Assembly: GCA_046595995.1 (NCBI GenBank) | Contig: JBKJNB010000116.1 | Coordinates: forward strand, 44,744 to 108,743 | DNA: 64,000 bases | Source: Candidatus Kapaibacteriota bacterium | Lineage (GTDB): Bacteria > Bacteroidota > Ignavibacteria > Kapaibacteriales > Kapaibacteriaceae | Direction: 5' to 3' | In this document: positions 6,270 through 13,995 of the stretch, piece by piece | Layout of the letters: the number at the start of each line of letters is the position of its first letter | Numbering within the stretch: position 1 is the stretch's first letter | Notes under the pieces: model-generated | Database searches by the model: none | What the model saw: the letters and a program-made list of their open reading frames with translations, nothing else | What the model was told of the DNA's origin: nothing | Program-made: the position numbers and the translations under genes

Positions 6270-7301
6270 ATGGCAGTCAGGAAGAAGATACTCTTCGTTT
6301 GTGGGTCTATGAACCAGACCACAACGATGCATAAAATCTCTCGGTACCTTCCCGACCATGACCATTGGTTCACTCCCTGTTATACCGACGGCTTCCTGGG
6401 GATTCTTGAACGCAATCGCATGATTGAATGGACCGTCGCCGGTCTCGGCTTTCAGGAACGAGCGGTCGAGTACTGTAAAAAAAACGAGCTCCAGGTCGAT
6501 GTAGGTGGAGTACACAACGACTACGATCTCGTGATTACGTGTAGCGACATTGTCGTTCAGAAGAATATTCGCCACAAGCGTATTGTGCTTGTGCAGGAAG
6601 GCATGACCGATCCTGAAAACATCGCCTTTTATTTAGTGAAGTACCTCGGCCTGCCTCGCTATATCGCCTCGACCTCGACATTCGGAATGTCCGATGCGTA
6701 TGTGCGTTTCTGCGTAGCGTCGTCGGGCTATCGCGACCTTTTCGTTCGCAAGGGAGCACGATTCGAAAAGATGACAGTAACAGGGATTCCGAACTTCGAC
6801 AACTGTAAAGAGTTTCTTGATTTGCCCTTCGAGCACGAGGATTACGTACTCGTGGCCACGTCTGATTCTCGTGAGACATTCAAGCTCGAGAATCGTAAAA
6901 AATTCATCGAACACGCATTGCGTATTGCGGACGGACGCAAAACCATCTTCAAACTGCATCCGAACGAAAACATCGATCGCGCGCGTCGCGAAATAGACCG
7001 ATGGGCACCAAATGCACTGTTGTACTACAATTGCGATATCAACCGGATGATCGCCCACTGCGACACACTCGTCACTCGGTTCTCGACGGTTGTGTATGTT
7101 GGCATTGCGTTGAATAAGAAGGTCTACAGCGACTTCGACATCAATCTGCTCCGCGCCTGTTGTCCAGAACAAAATGGCGGTCACTCGGCCGAACGGATTG
7201 CAACGGTATGCGAAGAAGTGCTGGACCGTAAGGACGTCTTGATTCCTGTATCAGTAAGTTTTCAAAGCCCTGCATCGTGGCGCAAAGCAGTTCAAGCATG
7301 A
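6270..7301 (+). CDS. GT-B-fold UDP-sugar 2-epimerase/hydrolase superfamily protein (NeuC/PseG/SpsG-like, divergent)
   Basis: N-terminus KKILFVCGS....K resembles the 2-epimerase start K-I-L-T-V-F-G-T-R-P-E-A-I-K. The C-terminal block YVLVATSDSRE...IFKLHPNENIDRARREI matches the epimerase HPNP-type motif, but the DSGG motif is degenerate. First gene of the coupled operon. ATG at 6270 sits after agagga; the track start at 6171 is a TTG. Confidence 0.45.
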   Translation: MAVRKKILFVCGSMNQTTTMHKISRYLPDHDHWFTPCYTDGFLGILERNRMIEWTVAGLGFQERAVEYCKKNELQVDVGGVHNDYDLVITCSDIVVQKNIRHKRIVLVQEGMTDPENIAFYLVKYLGLPRYIASTSTFGMSDAYVRFCVASSGYRDLFVRKGARFEKMTVTGIPNFDNCKEFLDLPFEHEDYVLVATSDSRETFKLENRKKFIEHALRIADGRKTIFKLHPNENIDRARREIDRWAPNALLYYNCDINRMIAHCDTLVTRFSTVVYVGIALNKKVYSDFDINLLRACCPEQNGGHSAERIATVCEEVLDRKDVLIPVSVSFQSPASWRKAVQA

Positions 7302-8134
7302 ACATCGTTGTCGTTTGTCAGGCACGTCTCAGCTCTACCCGTTTACCGCGAAAAGTACTCCTCCCTTTATCAGGGAAGCCCCTTATCGCGCGCTTTATGG
7401 AAAGAGTACTCCGCTCACGGCTCGCATCGTCCGTTGTGGTGGCGACAACGACCGATGCTGTTGATGACGAACTGGCAACAGAGTGCGCGACGCGTGGATA
7501 CGAAGTGTTTAGGGGTCACCCTACCGACTTGCTTGACAGGCACTATCAAGCCGGTAAGCAATACGGCGCTGACGTCGTTGTAAAAATTCCCACGGATTGT
7601 CCACTAATCGACCCAGTCGTAATCGACAAGGTCATTGCCGCCTATCTGTCCAACCCGAATGACGTCGATTTCGTGAGCAACCTACACCCCGCATCCTACC
7701 CTGATGGCAATGACGTTGAAGTGATGACGATGGCCGCGCTTGAACTGGCGTGGACGCGCGCGTCGCGCGCGTTCGAACGTGAACATACTACGCCGTGGCT
7801 GTGGGACGCCAATCCTGCAGTACGGTGTTTGAATGTATCGTGGGACCACGACATAGACCTTAGTATGACACACCGTTGGACCATAGACTATCCCGAAGAC
7901 TATTTGTTTATCAACGCGGTGTACGAAGCATTGCTTCCGCATAACTCGCGCTTTCGCCTCGAAGATGTTCTTAGTTTGCTGCAGGAGCGTCCAGAGATAG
8001 CCGCACTCAACGCCCACCTCGCGGGGGTGAATTGGTATCGCGATCATCTTGGCGAATTACGGACGGTAACCACGAACGAAACACGACCCTTTCCAGCCCC
8101 ATCCCAATCCCAATCCCAATCCCAATCCGTATGA
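7298..8134 (+). CDS. Cytidylyltransferase, SpsF/acylneuraminate cytidylyltransferase family (CTP_transf_3)
   Basis: MNIVVVCQARLSSTRLPRKVL.PL.GKPLI...TDCPLIDP..ID.VI aligns closely with B. subtilis SpsF (IQARMGSTRLPGKVL...GDNPFVDP). It overlaps the upstream gene as ATGA. The 3' end carries an (SQ)4 tail from a hexanucleotide repeat. Confidence 0.8.
   Translation: MNIVVVCQARLSSTRLPRKVLLPLSGKPLIARFMERVLRSRLASSVVVATTTDAVDDELATECATRGYEVFRGHPTDLLDRHYQAGKQYGADVVVKIPTDCPLIDPVVIDKVIAAYLSNPNDVDFVSNLHPASYPDGNDVEVMTMAALELAWTRASRAFEREHTTPWLWDANPAVRCLNVSWDHDIDLSMTHRWTIDYPEDYLFINAVYEALLPHNSRFRLEDVLSLLQERPEIAALNAHLAGVNWYRDHLGELRTVTTNETRPFPAPSQSQSQSQSV
8098..8128 (+). repeat. Hexanucleotide simple sequence repeat (cccaat/atccca) x~5
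   Basis: The string ccccatcccaatcccaatcccaatcccaatcc lies directly at the cytidylyltransferase / transketolase-N junction. It encodes SQSQSQSQ in the upstream gene and PIPIPIPI in another frame. Confidence 0.9.
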
Positions 8135-8988
8135 ATCAACGTGAGTCCGACGAACTGAAGCGCATTGCGCTGCGTGTTCGCGAACACATTCTTCGCATGT
8201 CAACCGACGGTGGTTGTTTTACAGGAGCGTCGCTTTCGTGTGCAGATCTTTTGGTCTTCCTGTACTCGCGATTCCTCAATGTTTCGCCAGAAACGATTGC
8301 TTCTCCTGACAGGGATTACCTCTTGCTATCGAAGGGACACGACGTCCCGGCCTTGTATGGTGTGTTTGCCGAGCTCGGATTCCTCGACCCAGAGCGCCTG
8401 AAGAACCACCTAAAGACAAACGACCACATATACTGGCATCCCAACCGCGCCATACCTGGCGTAGAGTTTCATTCGGGCTCACTGGGCCATTTATTGTCGG
8501 TTTCGATTGGCATCGCCGCTGATATCAAGTTGCGCGAAGGAAGAAACAAAGTCGTTGTGGTGCTCGGTGATGGTGAACTCAACGAAGGCACGATATGGGA
8601 AGGCTGCCTGACTGCGAATGCGTGGAAGCTCGACAATCTGATTGCAGTGATCGATCGCAACTACTTCCAGGCCAACATTCGTACTGAAGAACTCATACCG
8701 CTGGAGCCGATAGTAGACAAGTTTAAAGCATTCGGGTGGAACGTGATGAGTGTCGATGGCCACGATTACAATGCTCTCGATGATGTCTTCTCGTCTTGGC
8801 AGCCCGATTCTGGCAACCCCACTGTGATTGTTGCTTCAACGCAGCGTGGACGAGGTGTTCCATCAATTGCAGAACGTGCTGATCGTTGGTTCTGCAATTT
8901 CACACATGCAGAAGTAGAGCAGCTCATCGGTGAACTACACGGAGAAACCGCGGCCGACCTAACATCAGAAACCTTGATTGTGCGCTAA
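8131..8988 (+). CDS. Transketolase, N-terminal (TPP-binding) subunit of a split transketolase
   Basis: Contains HSGSLGHLLSVSIGIA...VVVVLGDGELNEGTIWEG (TPP-binding GDG...NEG motif). At about 285 aa it is of COG3959 type. It overlaps the upstream gene as ATGA. Confidence 0.85.
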   Translation: MNQRESDELKRIALRVREHILRMSTDGGCFTGASLSCADLLVFLYSRFLNVSPETIASPDRDYLLLSKGHDVPALYGVFAELGFLDPERLKNHLKTNDHIYWHPNRAIPGVEFHSGSLGHLLSVSIGIAADIKLREGRNKVVVVLGDGELNEGTIWEGCLTANAWKLDNLIAVIDRNYFQANIRTEELIPLEPIVDKFKAFGWNVMSVDGHDYNALDDVFSSWQPDSGNPTVIVASTQRGRGVPSIAERADRWFCNFTHAEVEQLIGELHGETAADLTSETLIVR

Positions 8989-9941
8989 TGAACCGCTACG
9001 AAGAACTCTTACTCGACCTTGTAAATACTGATGAACGCATCGTTGTACTCACAGCAGAGAACCGTGGTCACATGCGTACGTTGCCGACCCATCTTGGCAA
9101 GCGTTTCATGGATGTCGGCATTGCCGAGCAGACAATGATTGGTGTTGCTGCTGGTCTCGCATTGCGCGGACGCATCGTCCTTACACATGCCCTTGCGTGC
9201 TTTATTACGTTGCGTCCATTCGAGTTCATACGCGACGACGTAGGCATCCCCAATCTTCCAGTGATCATGGTCGGTATGGTGCCTGGTTTCCTTTCGGATG
9301 GGAATGGGCCAACGCACCAGGCCATTGATGATGTTGCGTTGATGCGCGGCATCCCCAACGTAGGCGTGTTCTGTCCGGCAGACGAAGATGACTTCATTAT
9401 CGGCATGCGCGACATCATTCTAAGTGGCAAGCCGTTTTACGTCCGTTACATCAACACGCCCGCTTACGTCGAACACGACAAGACTTTCGAGATTGGTAAA
9501 GCCGAAATTGTGAAGGGGCCTAAGAAGGGGCAGCGTGACGTTACCATCCTCACGTACGGACTCCTCTTAAAACAATCTGTGCAGGCAGCGGAGATTCTTG
9601 AATCGCATGGACTTGTCGTGCAAGTAGTGAACATGCGGACACTCAAGCCAGTGGACACCGACGCGATACTCGACGCTGCTCGAAGCAGCTCGCTTGTCGT
9701 TACGGTAGAAGATCACTTTAAGAACGGTGGGCTGTACTCGATTCTTGCCGATACCGTCCTCGACCGTGCAACACCATGCGCGGCACTGGCAATTGCGCTC
9801 GAGGAACGATGGTTCCGGCCAGCACTTCTCAACGATGTACTTGAATTCGAAGGTTTCACTGGCGAACAGATTGCTGTGCGTATTCAACGCGCACTTGAGC
9901 TTCAACCAAAGGACTCGTATGCCGAACTCCGTTTCTCTTAA
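8988..9941 (+). CDS. Transketolase, C-terminal (pyrimidine-binding/C-domain) subunit
   Basis: FMDVGIAEQTMIGVAAGLALRG...PGFLSDGNGPTHQAIDDVALMRGIPN is of COG3958 type. Its start overlaps the preceding stop (TAATG). Confidence 0.85.
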   Translation: MNRYEELLLDLVNTDERIVVLTAENRGHMRTLPTHLGKRFMDVGIAEQTMIGVAAGLALRGRIVLTHALACFITLRPFEFIRDDVGIPNLPVIMVGMVPGFLSDGNGPTHQAIDDVALMRGIPNVGVFCPADEDDFIIGMRDIILSGKPFYVRYINTPAYVEHDKTFEIGKAEIVKGPKKGQRDVTILTYGLLLKQSVQAAEILESHGLVVQVVNMRTLKPVDTDAILDAARSSSLVVTVEDHFKNGGLYSILADTVLDRATPCAALAIALEERWFRPALLNDVLEFEGFTGEQIAVRIQRALELQPKDSYAELRFS

Positions 9942-11271
9942 TCAAGACTATCCGGTTATTCACGAGTCTACAGCTCTGCTTCAGAGAGCAGAGGGCGGAG
10001 GCTTCATCCCATGCGCCACGCAGACGTTGGCCAAGGGTCCGGCTCAGAATGTTCGCGGCGTCGCTCCCGTTTATTTGCGGCGAGGCAAAGGCAGTCATGT
10101 TTGGGATGTAGATAATAACGAATACATCGACTACACAATGGGTGTAGGTCCGCTCTCACTGGGCTACGCTTTCGATGTTGTAGACGATGCAATTCGTGCG
10201 CAGCTCAACGATGGTATAACATTCTCCCTCATGCATCCATTGGAAGTTGAAGTCGCAGAGCTCATCCGCGAAGTCGTTCCGAACGTAGAGAGTGTGCGCT
10301 ACAGTAAGACAGGTTGTGATGTAACGACTGCAGCGGTTCGTCTTGCGCGCGCATACACGGGCAAGAACACGATTCTCTGCTGTGGCTACCATGGGTGGCA
10401 CGACTGGTACATCGGTGTTACCGATCGCAACAGAGGAGTACCAGAAGCGGTGCGCGGTCTTACCTATACGTTTAACTACAACGATATTGACAGCGTGTTG
10501 CAATCCATCGACGACGACACGGCCGCCATTATCCTAGAGCCAGTTGTTTTCGATCAGCCGAACGATGACTTCTTGCACGCACTCAGAAACGTGTGCGATG
10601 AGAAGGGCATACTCCTCATTTTCGACGAGATGTGGACGGGCTTTCGACTGGCGTTAGGTGGTGCTCAGGAGTATTTCGGCGTCCGTGCGGACCTCGCGTG
10701 CTTCTCTAAAGCCGTTGCCAATGGCATGCCGCTGAGCATACTATGCGGTCGTGCGGATGTCATGGCACTGCTTGAACACGATGTCTTTTTCTTCACGACA
10801 TTTGGCGGGGAAGCACTGTCACTCGCTGCCGCAAAGGCAACGATTAACTTCATGCGAGACAACGATGTCGTGGGCAAGCTTGCTACGAACGGTGCTAAAC
10901 TACGGGACGGATACAATGCAATAGCTGCAGAGTATGGCATCACATACACGCGTGCTAAGGGTTATCCATGTCGCAGCATTGTGGTGTTCGACGCATCGGC
11001 AGGAGACCCGTTGCTCATGAAGTCATATGTTCAGCAGGAAATGATTCGGCGCGGTATACTTTGGGGTGGCTTTCACAACATGTCGTATTCGCACACTGAC
11101 GCCGATATCGCACACACGCTTAGTGCTTATCGAGAAGTGCTACCGCTTCTCAAAGCGGCGGTAGAATCTGACTCGCTTCGCGCAGTTCTCCGCGGTGACG
11201 CTGTGGATGCGGTCTTCCGCAAAACCAGCAACTTCAACACGAAGCCCAAACGCAAAGGCGTATCCGCATGA
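9919..11271 (+). CDS. Class-III aminotransferase, glutamate-1-semialdehyde aminomutase (HemL)-like
   Basis: IPCATQTLAKGPAQNVRGVAPVYLRRGKGSHVWDVDNNEYIDY..GVGPLSLGY parallels the HemL N-terminus, with a PLP-fold length of about 450 aa. The only in-frame ATG before the conserved block is at 9919; the ORF track starts at 9727. Confidence 0.8.
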   Translation: MPNSVSLNQDYPVIHESTALLQRAEGGGFIPCATQTLAKGPAQNVRGVAPVYLRRGKGSHVWDVDNNEYIDYTMGVGPLSLGYAFDVVDDAIRAQLNDGITFSLMHPLEVEVAELIREVVPNVESVRYSKTGCDVTTAAVRLARAYTGKNTILCCGYHGWHDWYIGVTDRNRGVPEAVRGLTYTFNYNDIDSVLQSIDDDTAAIILEPVVFDQPNDDFLHALRNVCDEKGILLIFDEMWTGFRLALGGAQEYFGVRADLACFSKAVANGMPLSILCGRADVMALLEHDVFFFTTFGGEALSLAAAKATINFMRDNDVVGKLATNGAKLRDGYNAIAAEYGITYTRAKGYPCRSIVVFDASAGDPLLMKSYVQQEMIRRGILWGGFHNMSYSHTDADIAHTLSAYREVLPLLKAAVESDSLRAVLRGDAVDAVFRKTSNFNTKPKRKGVSA

Positions 11272-12080
11272 GTGTACTCGACCTATTTCGTCTGGATGGC
11301 AAAGTTGCAGTGGTAACAGGTGCAGCCGGACTGATCGGCACGCACCACTGTCAGGCGCTCGCCGATGCAGGCGCAATCGTCGTTGCATGTGATCTTGATG
11401 CGGGGGCTGCCGCGGACGTTGCGTCCACTCTAGGACCACCGCATCTCGGCAGGGGGCTCGACGTGACGAATCCTGGCTCATTGACTGCACTACGTGATGA
11501 GTTACTTCAACAGTATGGCGCCATCGACATCTTAGTGAATAACGCTGCTATCAATGACATGGTCGAAAGCCCAGCACTTGCCGCGGAACTATCAAAGTTT
11601 GAGAACTACCCACTTACGTTATGGAAACGTGTCTTAGATGTCAACGTTACTGGCGTCTATCTCTGTTGCCAGGTATTCGGTACTGTGATGGCCGAAGGTC
11701 GATCGGGCAGTATTGTAAACATTGCATCTACCTATGGTGTTGTTGCTCCCGATCAATCGATCTATCGCACACCCGACGGTGAGCAGCCGTTCTTTAAGAG
11801 TGCGGCGTATCCTGCGAGCAAAGGTGCTGTTGTGATGCTTACAAAATTCCTTGCGACATACTGGGGTAGCAAAGGCGTCCGAGTAAACACGTTATCTCCC
11901 GGCGGCGTTGAGAACAACCAGGCAGCACATTTCATCGAAAACTACTCTGCGAAAACGCCCCTTGGCCGCATGGCGGCCCCTTCCGACTACATGGGTGCAC
12001 TTGTCTTTCTTGCGAGCGATGCGTCGGCGTATATGACTGGACACAATCTACTTGTCGATGGCGGCTGGACCGCCTGGTAA
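11268..12080 (+). CDS. Classical short-chain dehydrogenase/reductase (FabG/PtmA-like)
   Basis: GKVAVVTGAAGLIG Rossmann motif, about 270 aa, with a C-terminus like ...NNAAIND....Y..SK.A. ATGA-coupled to the aminotransferase. Confidence 0.85.
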   Translation: MSVLDLFRLDGKVAVVTGAAGLIGTHHCQALADAGAIVVACDLDAGAAADVASTLGPPHLGRGLDVTNPGSLTALRDELLQQYGAIDILVNNAAINDMVESPALAAELSKFENYPLTLWKRVLDVNVTGVYLCCQVFGTVMAEGRSGSIVNIASTYGVVAPDQSIYRTPDGEQPFFKSAAYPASKGAVVMLTKFLATYWGSKGVRVNTLSPGGVENNQAAHFIENYSAKTPLGRMAAPSDYMGALVFLASDASAYMTGHNLLVDGGWTAW

Positions 12081-12109
12081 AAACAATTTCACTACTCAAG
12101 GCCACGAAC

Positions 12110-13012
12110 ATGAGCGACCGCATTGTCTCAGTAGGAAAACGCGCGATTGGCGATGGCCACCCAACGTACGTAATCGCTGAAATTGGCATCAACCACAATG
12201 GTTCGATCGACGTAGCCAAGCAGATGATTGCTGGTGCCGTAGAGGCCGGTGCCGATTGTGTGAAGTTTCAGAAGCGCACACCTGAGATGTGTGTGCCTCG
12301 CGATCAGTGGTTAATTGAACGTGATACGCCGTGGGGACGTATGACGTACATCGATTATCGATACAAAGTGGAATTCACTGCAGAACAGTACGCAGATATC
12401 GACAGGTATTGTAAGGCAAACTCAATTGACTGGACGGTCTCTTGTTGGGATGAAGGTGCAGTAGACTTCATGGAAGAGCACTTCAGCGTTCCGTTCTATA
12501 AGGCGGCGTCGGCATCGCTCACAGACCTGCCTCTTCTGCAACGCATGCAGGCATCTGGTAAGGCTCTAGTCATCTCGACTGGCATGTCGACGATGGATGA
12601 GATTACTCACGCAATCGACGCGCTCGACCGCGATCGCTTGCTCATAGCTCACGCAACGTCTACTTATCCATGTCCACCGGAAGAACTCAATCTTCGCATG
12701 ATCACGACACTGCGCGATCTGTATCCTGACATTCCAATAGGTTATTCGGGACACGAAACGGGTCTCGCAACGACGTGCGCTACAATTGCACTTGGCGCTG
12801 CCTTCATCGAGCGCCATATAACCCTCGACCGTGCGATGTGGGGAACTGACCAAGCAGCAAGTGTCGAGCTCGGCGGGCTATTACGTCTAGTACGAGATGT
12901 TCGTGACATCGAAACTGCGTTGGGTGATGGAATAAAGCGTGTCTATGACAGCGAAATGAGCTCGCGGACGAAGCTTCGTCGCGTACGCTCAACGAACGGC
13001 ATTCAGGCTTAA
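12110..13012 (+). CDS. NeuB/SpsE-family sialic-acid-type synthase (PEP-condensing TIM barrel) lacking the C-terminal SAF domain
   Basis: HPTYVIAEIGINHNGSIDVAKQMI is the NeuB-family N-terminal signature. At 300 aa it ends before where the antifreeze-like SAF domain normally lies. Confidence 0.85.
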   Translation: MSDRIVSVGKRAIGDGHPTYVIAEIGINHNGSIDVAKQMIAGAVEAGADCVKFQKRTPEMCVPRDQWLIERDTPWGRMTYIDYRYKVEFTAEQYADIDRYCKANSIDWTVSCWDEGAVDFMEEHFSVPFYKAASASLTDLPLLQRMQASGKALVISTGMSTMDEITHAIDALDRDRLLIAHATSTYPCPPEELNLRMITTLRDLYPDIPIGYSGHETGLATTCATIALGAAFIERHITLDRAMWGTDQAASVELGGLLRLVRDVRDIETALGDGIKRVYDSEMSSRTKLRRVRSTNGIQA

Positions 13013-13013
13013 C

Positions 13014-13841
13014 ATGATTGATTGGCTGACCAATGTATACGTGCAGAGTCCACTCACCTGGTGGACTTCATTCATCGTCGGTCTAGCTGCAGTACTTTTT
13101 GTTGTACTTGAACGCATAATCCCTTACACGAAGGGTCAGCGGTTACTTCGCGATGGTCTGATTAGCGATTTCTTCTGGTACTCTATCGTCCAGAATTATG
13201 TACTCGGTCTAGTGATTTTTGGTGCTATCGCGTACATCGATGAATTCACATCCATCGAACGGTGGACAGCCATTCGCAGTCTACCGATCGCAATGCAGTT
13301 GTTGATCGCCTTTGTCGTGCATGACTTCTACATTTACTGGTTTCATCGGTTTCAGCATGGTAGTCGCATATTCTGGCGCATTCACGAAGCGCATCACTCT
13401 ACGAGAGACGTCGACTGGCTCAGTGGCTCGCGATCACACTCACTGGAGATTCTAATTAACCAGACGGTAGAATTTGCGCCAATTGTTTTGTTGGCATCGC
13501 CGGAAGTCGCCATTCTTAAAGGTTGCGTCGATGCCGTATGGGGCATGTACATTCATTCAAACATTGACGTCCGATCAGGTGTGTTGCAGTATGTAATCAA
13601 TGGACCTGAAATGCATCGATGGCACCACGCAACGGACGACGATGCACACAACAAGAACTACTCTACGAAGCTTGCCATATGGGACTGGATGTTCGGTACT
13701 GCATACTTACCCCGTCGGCGTAAGCCGGAGGCATTCGGACTGGGCGATGAATTCCCGCGAAACTATTTCATGCAGCACGTCTACGCATTTCGAAAGTTTG
13801 AAGATGACGGAAACGCGAACGCTGCAAAATCCGGATCCTGA
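13014..13841 (+). CDS. Integral-membrane fatty acid hydroxylase / sterol desaturase superfamily di-iron enzyme
   Basis: His boxes HDFYIYWFHRFQH, HEAHHS and HRWHHATDDD, plus N-terminal TM helices. It starts 1 nt after the NeuB-like stop. Confidence 0.8.
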   Translation: MIDWLTNVYVQSPLTWWTSFIVGLAAVLFVVLERIIPYTKGQRLLRDGLISDFFWYSIVQNYVLGLVIFGAIAYIDEFTSIERWTAIRSLPIAMQLLIAFVVHDFYIYWFHRFQHGSRIFWRIHEAHHSTRDVDWLSGSRSHSLEILINQTVEFAPIVLLASPEVAILKGCVDAVWGMYIHSNIDVRSGVLQYVINGPEMHRWHHATDDDAHNKNYSTKLAIWDWMFGTAYLPRRRKPEAFGLGDEFPRNYFMQHVYAFRKFEDDGNANAAKSGS

Positions 13842-13995
13842 TTTATCCGGAGGAGCCGATCGTACTTGACCATGATTCTGTGGTAGACACGATCATAGTA
13901 TCCGACATACATCTCGGGTCGAGTGTGAGCAGAGGAAAGCGACTGCTCGAACTCAAACGGGAGAGATAACCTTACGGCAATGTTCATAAAAACAG

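Follow-up and report, generated by a model that had tools for sequence, protein, structure and literature searches.

An eight-gene operon of Candidatus Kapaibacteriota as a candidate route to a tailored nonulosonic acid of Kdn type, activated with CMP

Among the closest described systems are the CMP-Kdn pathways of Bacteroides thetaiotaomicron (synthase BT1714, phosphatase BT1713) and Prymnesium parvum, which share with the locus analysed here a SAF-less NeuB-family synthase, in all likelihood acting on a sugar 6-phosphate, CMP activation and, in relatives of the locus, a KdsC-family HAD partner. In P. parvum the pathway comprises a Kdn-9-P synthetase and a CMP-Kdn synthetase (PMC6200933). Beyond the enzymes of these pathways, our operon encodes a transketolase (TK)-like ThDP enzyme, a class-III aminotransferase, an SDR, a membrane hydroxylase and a TagF-like GT-B protein. 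Its cytidylyltransferase resembles SpsF and not NeuA, and the window (the whole 64,000-nucleotide stretch of DNA analysed) has no HAD. Tailoring of a finished 3-deoxy-ulosonic acid is exemplified by Kdo8N in Shewanella, where the alcohol dehydrogenase KdnB and the aminotransferase KdnA act on Kdo before CMP activation. The logic proposed below is similar (oxidation of a hydroxyl, transamination, CMP activation and transfer to a lipid-anchored glycan), but the Kdo8N route uses an iron-type alcohol dehydrogenase, another aminotransferase class and the eight-carbon Kdo, and has neither a ThDP enzyme nor a membrane hydroxylase. The same set of enzyme types is found in the aminoshikimate (AHBA) pathway (oxidoreductase RifL, aminotransferase RifK, phosphatase RifM, split transketolase Orf15A/B, aminoDAHP synthase RifH), which makes an aminated 3-deoxy-ulosonic acid phosphate; however, the families are distinct at every step but the transketolase, and the pathway leads to cyclisation into an aromatic ring and not to CMP activation. 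The teichulosonic acid of SCO4873-SCO4882 in Streptomyces coelicolor is, we assume, a Kdn polymer. These genes are called a teichulosonic acid-cell wall cluster in a statement of PMC13011467 that cites Ostash et al. 2014. That cluster has an orthologous NeuB-like synthase with all catalytic columns invariant, often with the same HAD upstream, but combines it with a NeuA-type cytidylyltransferase, DUF6716, a GT2 and a polysialyltransferase-like polymerase, and lacks the TK-like enzyme, aminotransferase, SDR and FA_hydroxylase. Streptomyces orthologues of our synthase (62-65% identity) lie in a PolyST-like / GT2 / DUF6716 / cytidylyltransferase / NeuB layout which matches SCO4878-4881 (PMC3479208).

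The locus at 6270-13841 consists of eight intact ORFs, all on the + strand, with neighbours overlapping or at most 29 nt apart, and is followed by the remnant of a ninth gene:

g1, 6270..7301, + strand: soluble 343-aa GT-B protein with the HP motif 'KLHPNE'; no Pfam match
g2, 7298..8134, + strand: SpsF/KdsB-superfamily cytidylyltransferase; CTP_transf_3 (PF02348, 92 bits)
g3, 8131..8988, + strand: N-terminal (PP-domain) subunit of a non-canonical transketolase-like ThDP enzyme; Transketolase_N (PF00456, 98 bits)
g4, 8988..9941, + strand: C-terminal (Pyr + C domain) subunit of the same ThDP enzyme as g3; Transket_pyr + Transketolase_C (PF02779 + PF02780)
g5, 9919..11271, + strand: class-III (GSA-aminomutase-like) PLP aminotransferase; Aminotran_3 (PF00202, 158 bits)
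g6, 11268..12080, + strand: classical SDR oxidoreductase; PF13561 and PF00106
g7, 12110..13012, + strand: SAF-less NeuB-family PEP-condensing synthase, 300 aa; NeuB domain only (PF03102, 239 bits)
g8, 13014..13841, + strand: integral-membrane di-iron hydroxylase; FA_hydroxylase (PF04116, 105 bits)
Ninth-gene remnant (pseudogene), 13804..13983, + strand: calcineurin-like phosphoesterase, from tblastn and DNA alignment

The initial annotation of this DNA described ATGA or TAATG overlaps throughout. These join four of the seven gene pairs (4-nt ATGA at g1/g2, g2/g3 and g5/g6, 1-nt TAATG at g3/g4), while the other three junctions are of a different type, though tight (a 23-nt overlap at g4/g5 and gaps of 29 nt at g6/g7 and 1 nt at g7/g8); the operon organisation it proposed is borne out by the eight tightly packed, co-directional genes. 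Its family assignments agree with Pfam/NCBIfam profiles for g2-g8 and with the GT-B fold of an AF2 model for g1, its nonulosonic-acid core stands as regards synthase (g7) and cytidylyltransferase (g2), and, as it stated, no 4,6-dehydratase, DegT-type aminotransferase or N-acetyltransferase is found among the eight genes. Nor was any assigned pathway for the gene set, or a paper describing the product of the operon, found in the literature searched, in line with its being undescribed. The flanks are of housekeeping type (thyX and a CCP/MauG-type peroxidase upstream, a convergent secA downstream), and a scan for consensus promoters and terminators gave counts at the level of shuffled sequence.

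The recurrence in related genomes that had been suggested as a check was found, as the gene order is shared by no fewer than 24 loci in genomes and 16 in metagenomes, from several phyla (Ignavibacteriota/Kapabacteria, Bacteroidota, Myxococcota and Chloroflexota), and the operon is thus more than a chance assembly. Neighbourhoods seeded with the TK subunit contain the whole set wherever identity is 53% or more and the flanking sequence is long enough, which, together with the shared order, suggests that all eight genes are functionally coupled. The identity of g7 across phyla is 60-72%, and SDR-HAD-NeuB is the most persistent adjacency among cluster variants. The TK-like genes are missing in L012, L020, L026, L036, L065 and L089, which keep the remaining cluster genes and a g7 with 64-70% identity to the window protein. 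A Lewinellaceae variant retains the SDR without the aminotransferase, and the SDR therefore does not act solely by feeding the aminotransferase. L146, a distant variant, has its TK-like genes flanked by two sugar-phosphate isomerases (SIS), and there a KpsC/S-type CMP-Kdo-transferase-family gene takes the role equivalent to g1.

Sequence comparison strongly supports placing g7 in the sugar-phosphate-using clade (Kdn-9-P synthase / NANS type). It aligns over its full length with the characterised P. parvum Kdn-9-P synthetase (33% identity, 144 bits), with which it shares the motif 'KFQKR' and the absence of a SAF domain, compared to 97 bits for N. meningitidis NeuB and 97-133 bits for the solved NeuB, PseI and SpsE; the NCBIfam model TIGR03569 is matched with 236 bits, below its cut-off of 400. 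The catalytic residues of NmNeuB are conserved in g7. Of the NmNeuB positions, E25, Q55, K129, S132, S154, Y186, S213, H215, H236 and D247 are retained, and E134, N184 and D214 are altered. In most of 88 genome loci, the gene just upstream of the NeuB-like one encodes a small HAD protein; in relatives this product has NF058599 (Kdn-9-P phosphatase) as best model (140-165 bits), scores above the cut-off of the KdsC subfamily and shares 36-41% identity with BT1713. Among g7 copies from full clusters, Streptomyces and Chlorobiaceae, 79 alignment columns are invariant, and between full-cluster and Streptomyces Kdn-cluster copies these include all the catalytic, PEP and metal positions that were inspected. 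As the Streptomyces copies work in clusters without TK, aminotransferase and SDR, this argues against an exotic, elongated acceptor. The earlier idea that g7 takes a non-canonical, longer or branched acceptor is accordingly at odds with the invariant columns, the upstream HAD and the 144 versus 97 bits, all of which point to a sugar-6-phosphate type.

In the window, no dedicated phosphatase gene is present and the HAD of relatives is missing. The ninth gene is decayed, since tblastn places residues 15-52 of the L005 protein at 13847-13960 (84% identity, E 9e-15) and residues 243-251 at 13957-13983, and DNA alignment reveals an internal deletion of about 590 bp, with a further 1-nt indel behind the start codon. 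L005-L009 and L011 carry an intact copy, and the protein has 252-258 aa in close relatives. A phosphatase encoded elsewhere presumably acts in this organism, given the lack of a HAD and the decay of the phosphoesterase gene.

With a probability of about one half, we read the operon as encoding the synthesis of a Kdn-type nonulosonic acid that is tailored, activated with CMP and passed on to a membrane-associated acceptor, and the most likely product is a CMP-activated Kdn derivative, oxidised or aminated. By homology and context, g7 would join PEP and a hexose-6-phosphate, most likely mannose-6-P, to a 3-deoxy-nonulosonate 9-phosphate, a step that is strongly supported. The 9-phosphate would then be removed, in most lineages by the KdsC/Kdn-9-P-phosphatase-type HAD. 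By analogy to Kdo8N and to aminoglycoside 6'-amination, the SDR (g6) may oxidise a hydroxyl of the sugar acid and g5 may convert the carbonyl to an amine, and g3/g4 may act on this intermediate in a non-canonical two-carbon reaction by way of dihydroxyethyl-ThDP. Activation with CTP by g2, transfer by g1 with release of CMP, and modification of the lipid acceptor or the lipid-bound product by g8 would complete the route. Several observations speak against this reading: the SIS genes beside the TK-like genes in L146 fit tailoring before condensation, carboligation to an aldehyde would be expected to need the acid/base histidines that are missing from the TK-like enzyme, the window has no dedicated phosphatase, and the Lewinellaceae variant keeps an SDR without an aminotransferase.

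The closest model of g5 is the GSA-aminomutase-like PRK06209 (378 bits, cut-off 486), with hemL TIGR00713 at 241 bits (cut-off 527), and its PDB matches are GSAM (195 bits), aminopentol aminotransferase (158) and sugar C-6' aminotransferases (126-132). For g6 the NCBIfam models of gluconate 5-DH, glucose 1-DH and GolD/DthD score best without reaching their cut-offs, and galactitol DH and gluconate 5-DH appear among generic SDRs in the PDB. The cytidylyltransferase g2, with the N-terminal motif 'ARLSSTRLPRK', is probably a CMP-ulosonic acid synthetase, judging from its best PDB match (6oew 'cytidylyltransferase', 125 bits), although it falls below every KdsB and PseF equivalog cut-off; it is SpsF-like and not a NeuA-type CMP-Kdn synthetase, matching PpNeuA only at E 5e-4, which counts against the reading above.

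The g3/g4 pair is a non-canonical transketolase in which the ThDP machinery is retained. It resembles the split transketolase of Carboxydothermus hydrogenoformans (6yak/6yaj, EC 2.2.1.1; 6yak is the best PDB match of g3, 178 bits) in its two subunits, fold, ThDP/metal motif, cofactor-activating Glu and three active-site histidines: g3 keeps the GDG...N motif and the His of 'LSKGH' and 'HP', and g4 the Glu of 'IAEQ' and the His of 'PTHQ'. However, the orthologues have invariably lost both catalytic (acid/base) histidines, the phosphate clamp (His/Arg/Ser) and the stereo-determining Asp that reads the acceptor 2-OH. Of the g3 orthologues, all 31 from genomes and all from metagenomes have Phe, or at any rate no His, at human H37 and H258, and in all 35 g4 orthologues H416 is V/I/F and D424 is N, with R474 not conserved. 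New invariant residues are C29, Y101, H120 and R176 in g3 and N25 and R30 in g4, where R26 is present in 34/35. The proposal that a transketolase extends the acceptor is thus upheld as to the presence of a split TK-family enzyme, but not as to several residues that define transketolase, nor in the TK-less variants. As some lineages without TK keep the rest, the enzyme appears to serve an accessory step, and a C2 extension, if any, is more likely to follow condensation than to precede it.

We consider it unlikely that tailoring comes first. In that case an unusual aldose phosphate would arise through the ThDP enzyme, the aminotransferase and the SDR (a ketose phosphate might, for instance, be converted by C2 transamination and C1 oxidation to a 2-amino-2-deoxy-aldose phosphate, perhaps with two extra carbons), and g7 would condense it with PEP to a neuraminic-acid-type or C10/C11 ulosonic acid. 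The gene order TK-AT-SDR-(HAD)-NeuB favours this refinement of the initial model, as does the restriction of the TK-like subfamily, in three sub-lineages, to clusters with sugar-phosphate-type SAF-less NeuB genes, while the L146 isomerases would meet the need for a ketose-to-aldose supply route, and mass-spectrometric hints of higher-carbon ulosonic acids exist for a few prokaryotes (PMC8157484). Against it stand the invariant active-site columns of g7, its conservation in TK-less clusters, the loss of the canonical sugar-phosphate clamp and the absence of an isomerase from the window family. An animal-like Neu5Ac route is improbable. Here g1 would be a NeuC/GNE-type hydrolysing UDP-GlcNAc 2-epimerase and g7 a NANS-type Neu5Ac-9-P synthase, followed by phosphatase and CMP-synthetase, with later decoration by TK, aminotransferase and SDR and a transferase encoded elsewhere; the N-acetyl group would stem from UDP-GlcNAc, and an acetyltransferase would therefore be unneeded. 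For g7, 43% identity and 236 bits to a human NANS sequence provide a lead only, and a g1 homologue right after NeuB in Lewinellaceae gives a neuB-neuC-like order, but a ManNAc kinase occurs in no cluster variant seen. In the AF2 model of g1 the closest structural neighbours are NeuC and 2-epimerases, for which reason g1 may not be a transferase, and 29/30 family members give weak Epimerase_2 matches. These are all below the Pfam cut-off, however, whereas TagF-family matches pass theirs, and a PDB profile search finds a TagF-like enzyme only. Moreover, 'GSMNQTT' and 'TRFSTVVY' stand in g1 in place of what we take to be the epimerase motifs, 'GTRPE' and 'DSGGxQEE'. A GT-B fold, an HP motif and a 'CDxLITxxSS'-type motif link g1 to the TagF/TarL polymerases and TagF-like capsule polymerases (Cps3D, Bcs3), whose donors have CMP as leaving group, but g1 is minimal, lacks the polymerase extensions and is equally close in fold to 2-epimerases. 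By sequence and model, g1 is placed between TagF-like and NeuC-like families; the TagF signals and the KpsC/S-type gene of L146 make it a probable transferase using the CMP-linked product.

A soluble exported small molecule, such as an aminated sugar acid or a CMP/phosphodiester conjugate (e.g. osmolyte, signal, antibiotic-like) leaving through an SMR protein, seems very improbable. It would fit the location of the cluster among housekeeping genes and not in an LPS or capsule locus, and neither polymerase, Wzx-type flippase nor initiating transferase was seen in the cluster; but where CMP activation goes with a TagF-like GT-B protein, the sugar is normally passed on to an acceptor. An SMR-family gene directly 3' of the hydroxylase gene in ten loci (nine Bacteroidota, one Oligoflexia) also favours export, but the gene is absent from the window lineage, and SMR-type proteins (ArnE/F) flip lipid-linked sugars as well. 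The hydroxylase itself, with four hydrophobic segments and the His boxes HRFQH, HEAHH and HRWHH, implies, as an OlsE-like enzyme, a lipid substrate. The sole curated family that it matches is OlsE, the ornithine-lipid hydroxylase of Rhizobium tropici (NF052566), from the same membrane di-iron His-box superfamily; the match is nearly full length (E 1e-37) but, at 130 bits, far below the cut-off of 475, and no ornithine-lipid genes lie near the operon. The g8 gene adjoins the NeuB-like gene in most loci, even where other cluster genes lie elsewhere. A membrane-associated acceptor, as in the preferred reading, and the lipid-linked headgroup suggested earlier gain some support from the closeness of g8 to OlsE and from the SMR genes of related clusters, and likewise from the Lewinellaceae variant, which carries PhyH together with LPG_synthase_TM, a flippase-like membrane gene.

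Eight plus-strand ORFs, g1 to g8, span 6270-13841 of the window and encode, in order, a GT-B protein, a cytidylyltransferase, the N and C subunits of a transketolase (TK)-like enzyme, an aminotransferase, an SDR, a NeuB-like synthase and an FA_hydroxylase protein. The junctions read from the sequence are:

7298, + strand, ATGA overlap of g1 and g2
8131, + strand, ATGA overlap of g2 and g3
8988, + strand, TAATG overlap of g3 and g4
9919, + strand, start of g5, 23-nt overlap with g4
11268, + strand, ATGA overlap of g5 and g6
12110, + strand, g7 after a 29-nt gap
13014, + strand, g8 after a 1-nt gap

The 5' neighbours are thyX and a CCP/MauG-type peroxidase gene, and the 3' neighbour is a convergent secA. 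Given these tight junctions and housekeeping flanks, the eight genes therefore form a compact operon among housekeeping genes. A scan of the window for consensus promoters and terminators gave counts at shuffle level and is uninformative for this lineage. A hexanucleotide repeat, (CCCAAT)x5.3, at 8097-8128 (TRF score 57) encodes the SQSQSQSQS tail at the C-terminus of g2 and ends 3 nt upstream of the g3 start codon. Changes in repeat length would keep the frame; the g2 orthologue of the related locus L005 is 9 residues shorter (269 vs 278 aa).

The protein families named in the initial annotation were confirmed by Pfam and NCBIfam. The cytidylyltransferase g2 belongs to CTP_transf_3 (PF02348, 92.2 bits vs a cut-off of 22.6) and lies under all KdsB/PseF equivalog cut-offs, while g3 carries Transketolase_N and g4 Transket_pyr plus Transketolase_C. 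The aminotransferase g5 has the class-III Aminotran_3 fold (PF00202) and lies under the HemL equivalog level (TIGR00713, 241 bits vs 527; PRK06209, 378 vs 486); its solved relatives among PDB matches include C-6' aminotransferases. The g6 product is a classical SDR whose PDB and NCBIfam matches are generic polyol/sugar-acid dehydrogenases that do not fix its substrate. The FA_hydroxylase protein g8 shows four hydrophobic segments and the His boxes HRFQH, HEAHH and HRWHH, with OlsE as its sole curated match (130 bits vs an equivalog cut-off of 475); membrane segments are predicted in none of the other seven products. No member of the operon qualifies as a canonical NeuB or PseI equivalog, as a transketolase proper, as HemL or as OlsE. 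It also holds, as first noted from the sequence, that no 4,6-dehydratase, DegT-type aminotransferase or acetyltransferase is found by Pfam and NCBIfam among the eight products. This Leg/Pse set, with its N-acetyltransferase, is likewise absent from the conserved cluster of relatives, and the Neu-type pair of NeuC with a SAF-bearing NeuB is absent from both the eight products and that cluster.

The gene set is widespread and deeply conserved. Close g7 homologues number in the thousands, with source names including Kapabacteria, Ignavibacteriae and Chloroherpetonaceae, and syntenic relatives (g7 identity 85% and 77%) carry the same eight genes and flanks plus a ninth, Metallophos gene. A scan of a genome collection with a g7-subfamily alignment yielded 80 loci, to which all window proteins were then compared by tblastn. 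The window order, with or without a Kdn-9-P-phosphatase-type gene (HAD) inserted before the NeuB-like gene, was found in Ignavibacteriota/Kapabacteria, Bacteroidota (Hymenobacter negativus and H. setariae isolates, Chitinophagales, Puia, Saprospiraceae), Myxococcota (Byssovorax and 'delta proteobacterium' MAGs) and Anaerolineae, and partial sets occur on contigs of Promineifilum, Oligoflexia, Methylococcaceae and Gemmatimonadales. A metagenome scan was seeded with the TK N-subunit, as the initial annotation had proposed: wherever identity reached at least 53% and the flank was long enough, the locus contained the whole set, and 16 loci were complete. Further recurrent ORF clusters from an all-against-all comparison were mostly antisense shadow ORFs.

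Several variants depart from this order. The two TK-like genes are missing from an otherwise collinear form, which does have the HAD gene, at loci L012, L020, L026, L036, L065 and L089 (Rosettibacter firmus). In Chloroherpetonaceae-like contigs only the HAD, NeuB-like and hydroxylase genes are contiguous, the aminotransferase gene lying 6 kb off. A Lewinellaceae MAG (L062, 7361-15571) has the order methyltransferase, SDR, HAD, NeuB, g1 homologue, GFO/IDH/MocA, cytidylyltransferase, PhyH and LPG_synthase_TM (a membrane protein), lacks both aminotransferase and TK-like genes, carries a different CTP_transf_3 protein, and has a soluble Fe/2OG-type PhyH dioxygenase in place of the membrane di-iron FA_hydroxylase. 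At ten loci (nine Bacteroidota, one Oligoflexia) an SMR-family (Multi_Drug_Res) gene follows directly 3' of the hydroxylase gene. It encodes a membrane protein of 121-128 aa and is exemplified by:

L053, 10969-11346, SMR-family gene 3' of the hydroxylase gene
L058, 12004-12375, SMR-family gene 3' of the hydroxylase gene
L075, 12146-12529, SMR-family gene 3' of the hydroxylase gene
L010, 4099-4482, SMR-family gene 3' of the hydroxylase gene

The protein, absent from the window, may act as a flippase in the manner of ArnE/F or export small molecules. In two Ignavibacteria MAGs (L029, 3769-6818; L043, 3267-7565) an insert of 2-3.4 kb splits the two TK-like subunit genes; that of L043 holds two ORFs, of 416 and 421 aa, which group with a family of secreted beta-propeller-like proteins. 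At L089 (15511-17463), from Rosettibacter firmus, the NeuB-like and hydroxylase genes are separated by an inserted gene for a GH97 glycoside hydrolase.

The synthase g7 is a NeuB TIM-barrel (PF03102, 238.8 bits, residues 39-276) of 300 aa that consists of the NeuB domain only, with zero matches to the SAF (antifreeze-like) domain PF08666. The SAF domain closes over the N-acetyl sugar. Membership of the NeuB family is unambiguous with Pfam and NCBIfam, which rules out a KDO8P/DAHP-type synthase, although g7 falls below the equivalog cut-offs for NeuB (TIGR03569, 235.7 vs 399.65 bits) and PseI (TIGR03586, 182.9 vs 340.25). Aligned to N. meningitidis NeuB, g7 conserves E25, Q55, K129, S132, S154, Y186, S213, H215, H236 and D247, which are catalytic, metal or PEP positions of that enzyme; the changes fall at sugar-side positions (E134 to S, N184 to S, D214 to G). 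Full-length alignment to the P. parvum Kdn-9-P synthetase, a biochemically characterised, Man-6-P-specific enzyme (PMC6200933), gives 33% identity and 144 bits, and both proteins lack SAF and share a KFQKR(T/N)P motif. Against solved enzymes g7 scores 97 bits (N. meningitidis NeuB), 98 (PseI) and 133 (B. subtilis SpsE), so the margin of the Kdn-9-P synthetase over SpsE is small; the 43% identity (236 bits) to an unverified human NANS sequence is a lead only.

The genomic context also points to a Kdn type. In most loci a HAD gene (173-195 aa) lies directly upstream of the g7 orthologue; its product exceeds the KdsC/YrbI subfamily cut-off, has as its best curated model the B. thetaiotaomicron-type Kdn-9-P phosphatase NF058599 (140-165 bits, below the cut-off of 180) and is 36-41% identical to the B. 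thetaiotaomicron phosphatase BT1713 (sequence from the supplement of PMC6200933). Streptomyces g7 orthologues are 62-65% identical and lie in the layout PolyST-like, GT2 (divergent), DUF6716, CTP_transf_3, NeuB. The teichulosonic acid of the S. coelicolor cluster SCO4873-4882 is presumably a Kdn polymer. The layout of the orthologues is that published for SCO4878-SCO4881 (PMC3479208), and SCO4873-4882, which includes these genes, is named the teichulosonic acid-cell wall cluster in PMC13011467. At L079 (Streptomyces sp. 5.8, 9029-10891) a single 621-aa ORF carries both CTP_transf_3 (57-179) and NeuB (362-598) domains, so that NeuA and NeuB are either fused here or encoded by two neighbouring genes of the Kdn cluster that share a frame. 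An alignment of 33 full-cluster, 10 Streptomyces and 4 Chlorobiaceae copies of g7 has 79 invariant columns, including every catalytic, PEP and metal position examined together with K55 and R56, and just eight positions distinguish the full-cluster from the Streptomyces copies. Four lines of evidence support the assignment of g7 as a sugar-phosphate (Kdn-9-P/NANS) type synthase. With the invariant columns included, the simplest reading is that the substrate of g7 does not differ from one cluster to another and is most likely Man-6-P.

As g7 would yield a 9-phosphate, a phosphatase is to be expected. A KdsC-type HAD is found neither within the window nor in the closest relatives, and dephosphorylation would therefore have to come from elsewhere in the genome. 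Close relatives (L005-L009 and L011) carry a phosphoesterase gene 3' of the hydroxylase gene, of which comparison with the L005 protein reveals a trace in the window:

13804-13983, + strand, remnant of a Metallophos (calcineurin-like phosphoesterase) gene, between the stop codons of g8 and secA

Residues 15-52 of the L005 protein map to it with 84% identity and residues 243-251 map as well, and a ~590 bp internal deletion and a 1-nt indel after the start codon separate the remnant from an intact gene. What this genome retains of the ninth operon gene is thus a pseudogene. The phosphoesterase as sole replacement of the HAD was rejected, as L089 has a Metallophos-family gene (a family-level match) as well as a HAD; the former, of 308 aa, lies upstream of the g1 homologue in divergent orientation.

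The g1 product had been described as a NeuC/PseG-like GT-B enzyme. A confident AF2 model (pLDDT 86) bears out the GT-B fold, and the closest solved folds are indeed of the NeuC/UDP-GlcNAc 2-epimerase type, but at the sequence level the gathering score is reached for Glyphos_transf only. Weak matches to Epimerase_2 (29/30 family members) and Glyphos_transf (20/30, E<=1) fall in the same central region; four homologues score 24.8-26.4 bits with PF04464 (Glyphos_transf, cut-off 22.1), while the best homologue with PF02350 (Epimerase_2) reaches 26.9 against 30.6, and g1 of the window matches neither. The HP motif goes with enzymes whose leaving group is CMP. Like the TagF-like family, g1 combines the GT-B fold with this motif and a C-terminal LITDYSS-type motif, and the sole PDB match of the family profile is the TagF-like polymerase Cps3D (E 3e-4), at the CDxLITxxSS motif. 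Because Glyphos_transf passes its gathering score and the invariant KLHPNE fits the HP motif, a CMP-dependent transferase is somewhat favoured over a NeuC-like hydrolysing epimerase.

The split transketolase of the initial annotation stands as a two-subunit TK-fold protein with ThDP motifs, but it is not canonical. Alignment of g3/g4 with human TK and the split TK of C. hydrogenoformans, checked in 31-35 genome orthologues and the metagenome set, shows that the ThDP/metal GDG...N motif (LGDGELNEG...DRN in g3) and the cofactor-activating Glu (IAEQ in g4) are invariant, and that the histidines of LSKGH, HP and PTHQ are kept. We take these three histidines to bind the dihydroxyethyl group, and the pair E. 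coli H26/H261, yeast H30/H263 and human H37/H258 to be the acid/base residues. This pair is gone: 31/31 genome orthologues, and every cluster-linked one from metagenomes, have Phe at the H37 position and WF without His at the H258 position. Human R318, S345, H416 and R474 presumably form the sugar-phosphate clamp and D424 is presumably the Asp that contacts the acceptor 2-OH. In 35/35 orthologues V/I/F stands in place of H416 and N in place of D424, conservation is lost at R474 and S345, and R318 did not align. New invariant residues are C29, Y101, H120 and R176 in g3 and N25 and R30 in g4, with g4 R26 kept in 34/35. Unrelated split TKs at equal sequence distance keep the canonical H..H..H..D..R set, including both acid/base histidines. 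The altered signature is also found at two distant loci, L146 and L151, where the TK-like genes adjoin a cytidylyltransferase, an SDR and a SAF-less KFQKR-type NeuB gene and, at L151, an aminotransferase gene. A DXP-synthase-type enzyme is ruled out by the Transketolase_N score of g3 (98 bits vs 35.5 for DXP_synthase_N) and countered by the three kept histidines. If the residue roles of the yeast and E. coli TK literature apply, the enzyme would have retained the dihydroxyethyl-ThDP side of the active site and lost the acid/base pair for the acceptor aldehyde along with the sugar-phosphate clamp. Judged by these signatures, g3/g4 appear to represent a ThDP enzyme family of their own that occurs only in these clusters.

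Condensation and then CMP activation is a familiar core logic: g7 very probably makes a nonulosonate 9-phosphate from PEP and a hexose-6-P, and formation of a CMP-sugar by g2 is just as probable, with a phosphatase predicted to act between the two. The place of the other enzymes is less certain. The SDR g6 and the aminotransferase g5 may, tentatively, oxidise and then aminate the sugar after condensation, an order suggested by the invariance of g7 and by analogy with Kdo8N and the 6'-amination of aminoglycosides. Conversely, the TK-like enzyme, aminotransferase and SDR might act upstream of g7, and the initial annotation had proposed an exotic acceptor made by them. The retention of the SDR without an aminotransferase in the Lewinellaceae variant, and the SIS isomerases that adjoin the TK-like genes of L146, with a KpsC/S-type transferase, keep tailoring before condensation alive, but the substrate site shared invariantly with the Streptomyces copies makes it unlikely, and the invariant active site and Kdn-type context argue against the exotic acceptor itself. 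The TK-like g3/g4 could add or move a two-carbon unit in an optional step, g1 may transfer the product and g8 may hydroxylate a lipid acceptor or the lipid-bound product. Taken as a whole, the product may be an undescribed CMP-activated amino-ulosonic acid with its distal end remodelled by the new-class ThDP enzyme, serving as a membrane-lipid head group hydroxylated by the OlsE-like enzyme, to which we give a probability of about one in four. One possible route would oxidise Kdn, lengthen it by two carbons to a C11 keto-sugar acid and then transaminate it, and TK-less lineages would make a nine-carbon amino analogue; the ThDP enzyme would keep its dihydroxyethyl-ThDP side, with the acid/base His and phosphate clamp replaced.

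Among characterised systems, the CMP-Kdn pathway of B. thetaiotaomicron and P. parvum and the teichulosonic acid cluster of Streptomyces come closest, sharing the synthase type with the operon, whereas the operon has five added enzymes and another cytidylyltransferase type. In CC-licensed PMC and bioRxiv full texts neither a description of this gene set nor a pathway assigned to it was found, and the literature there on Cj1437/serinol phosphate and Chlorobium aminoglycosphingolipids gave peripheral leads only. Three types of nonulosonic acid pathway are known, Neu/Kdn, Leg and Pse. The operon represents a fourth recurrent gene set, its order kept in mostly environmental bacteria from at least four phyla, and a nonulosonic-acid pathway holding a probably new ThDP enzyme function. 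From its TK-fold enzyme, systematically altered in catalytic signature and exclusive to these clusters, new ThDP chemistry on sugar acids may be expected. The gene set could also account for the Kdn/Neu-type and perhaps higher-carbon ulosonic acids that mass spectrometry has revealed in environmental bacteria (PMC8157484). Were the head-group proposal true, a widespread, unrecognised surface glycolipid would exist in Ignavibacteriota/Kapabacteria, Bacteroidota, Myxococcota and Chloroflexota. Carriers of the cluster that are in culture, and so open to direct tests, are Hymenobacter negativus BT442, H. setariae Fur1 and Rosettibacter firmus.

A distant variant of the cluster is seen at L146 (1-17514 of metagenome contig MDSW01000637.1). 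It comprises a PGI-like SIS, GT2, B12-radical SAM, GFO/IDH/MocA and SpsF-like cytidylyltransferase genes, the altered-signature TK-like N and C subunits, a GmhA-like SIS_2, an SDR and a SAF-less KFQKRT NeuB, as well as a KpsC/S-type Capsule_synth, a sulfotransferase, another SDR and another NeuB which, unlike g7, bears SAF. The cluster may make two distinct ulosonic acids, of which one would be sulfated.
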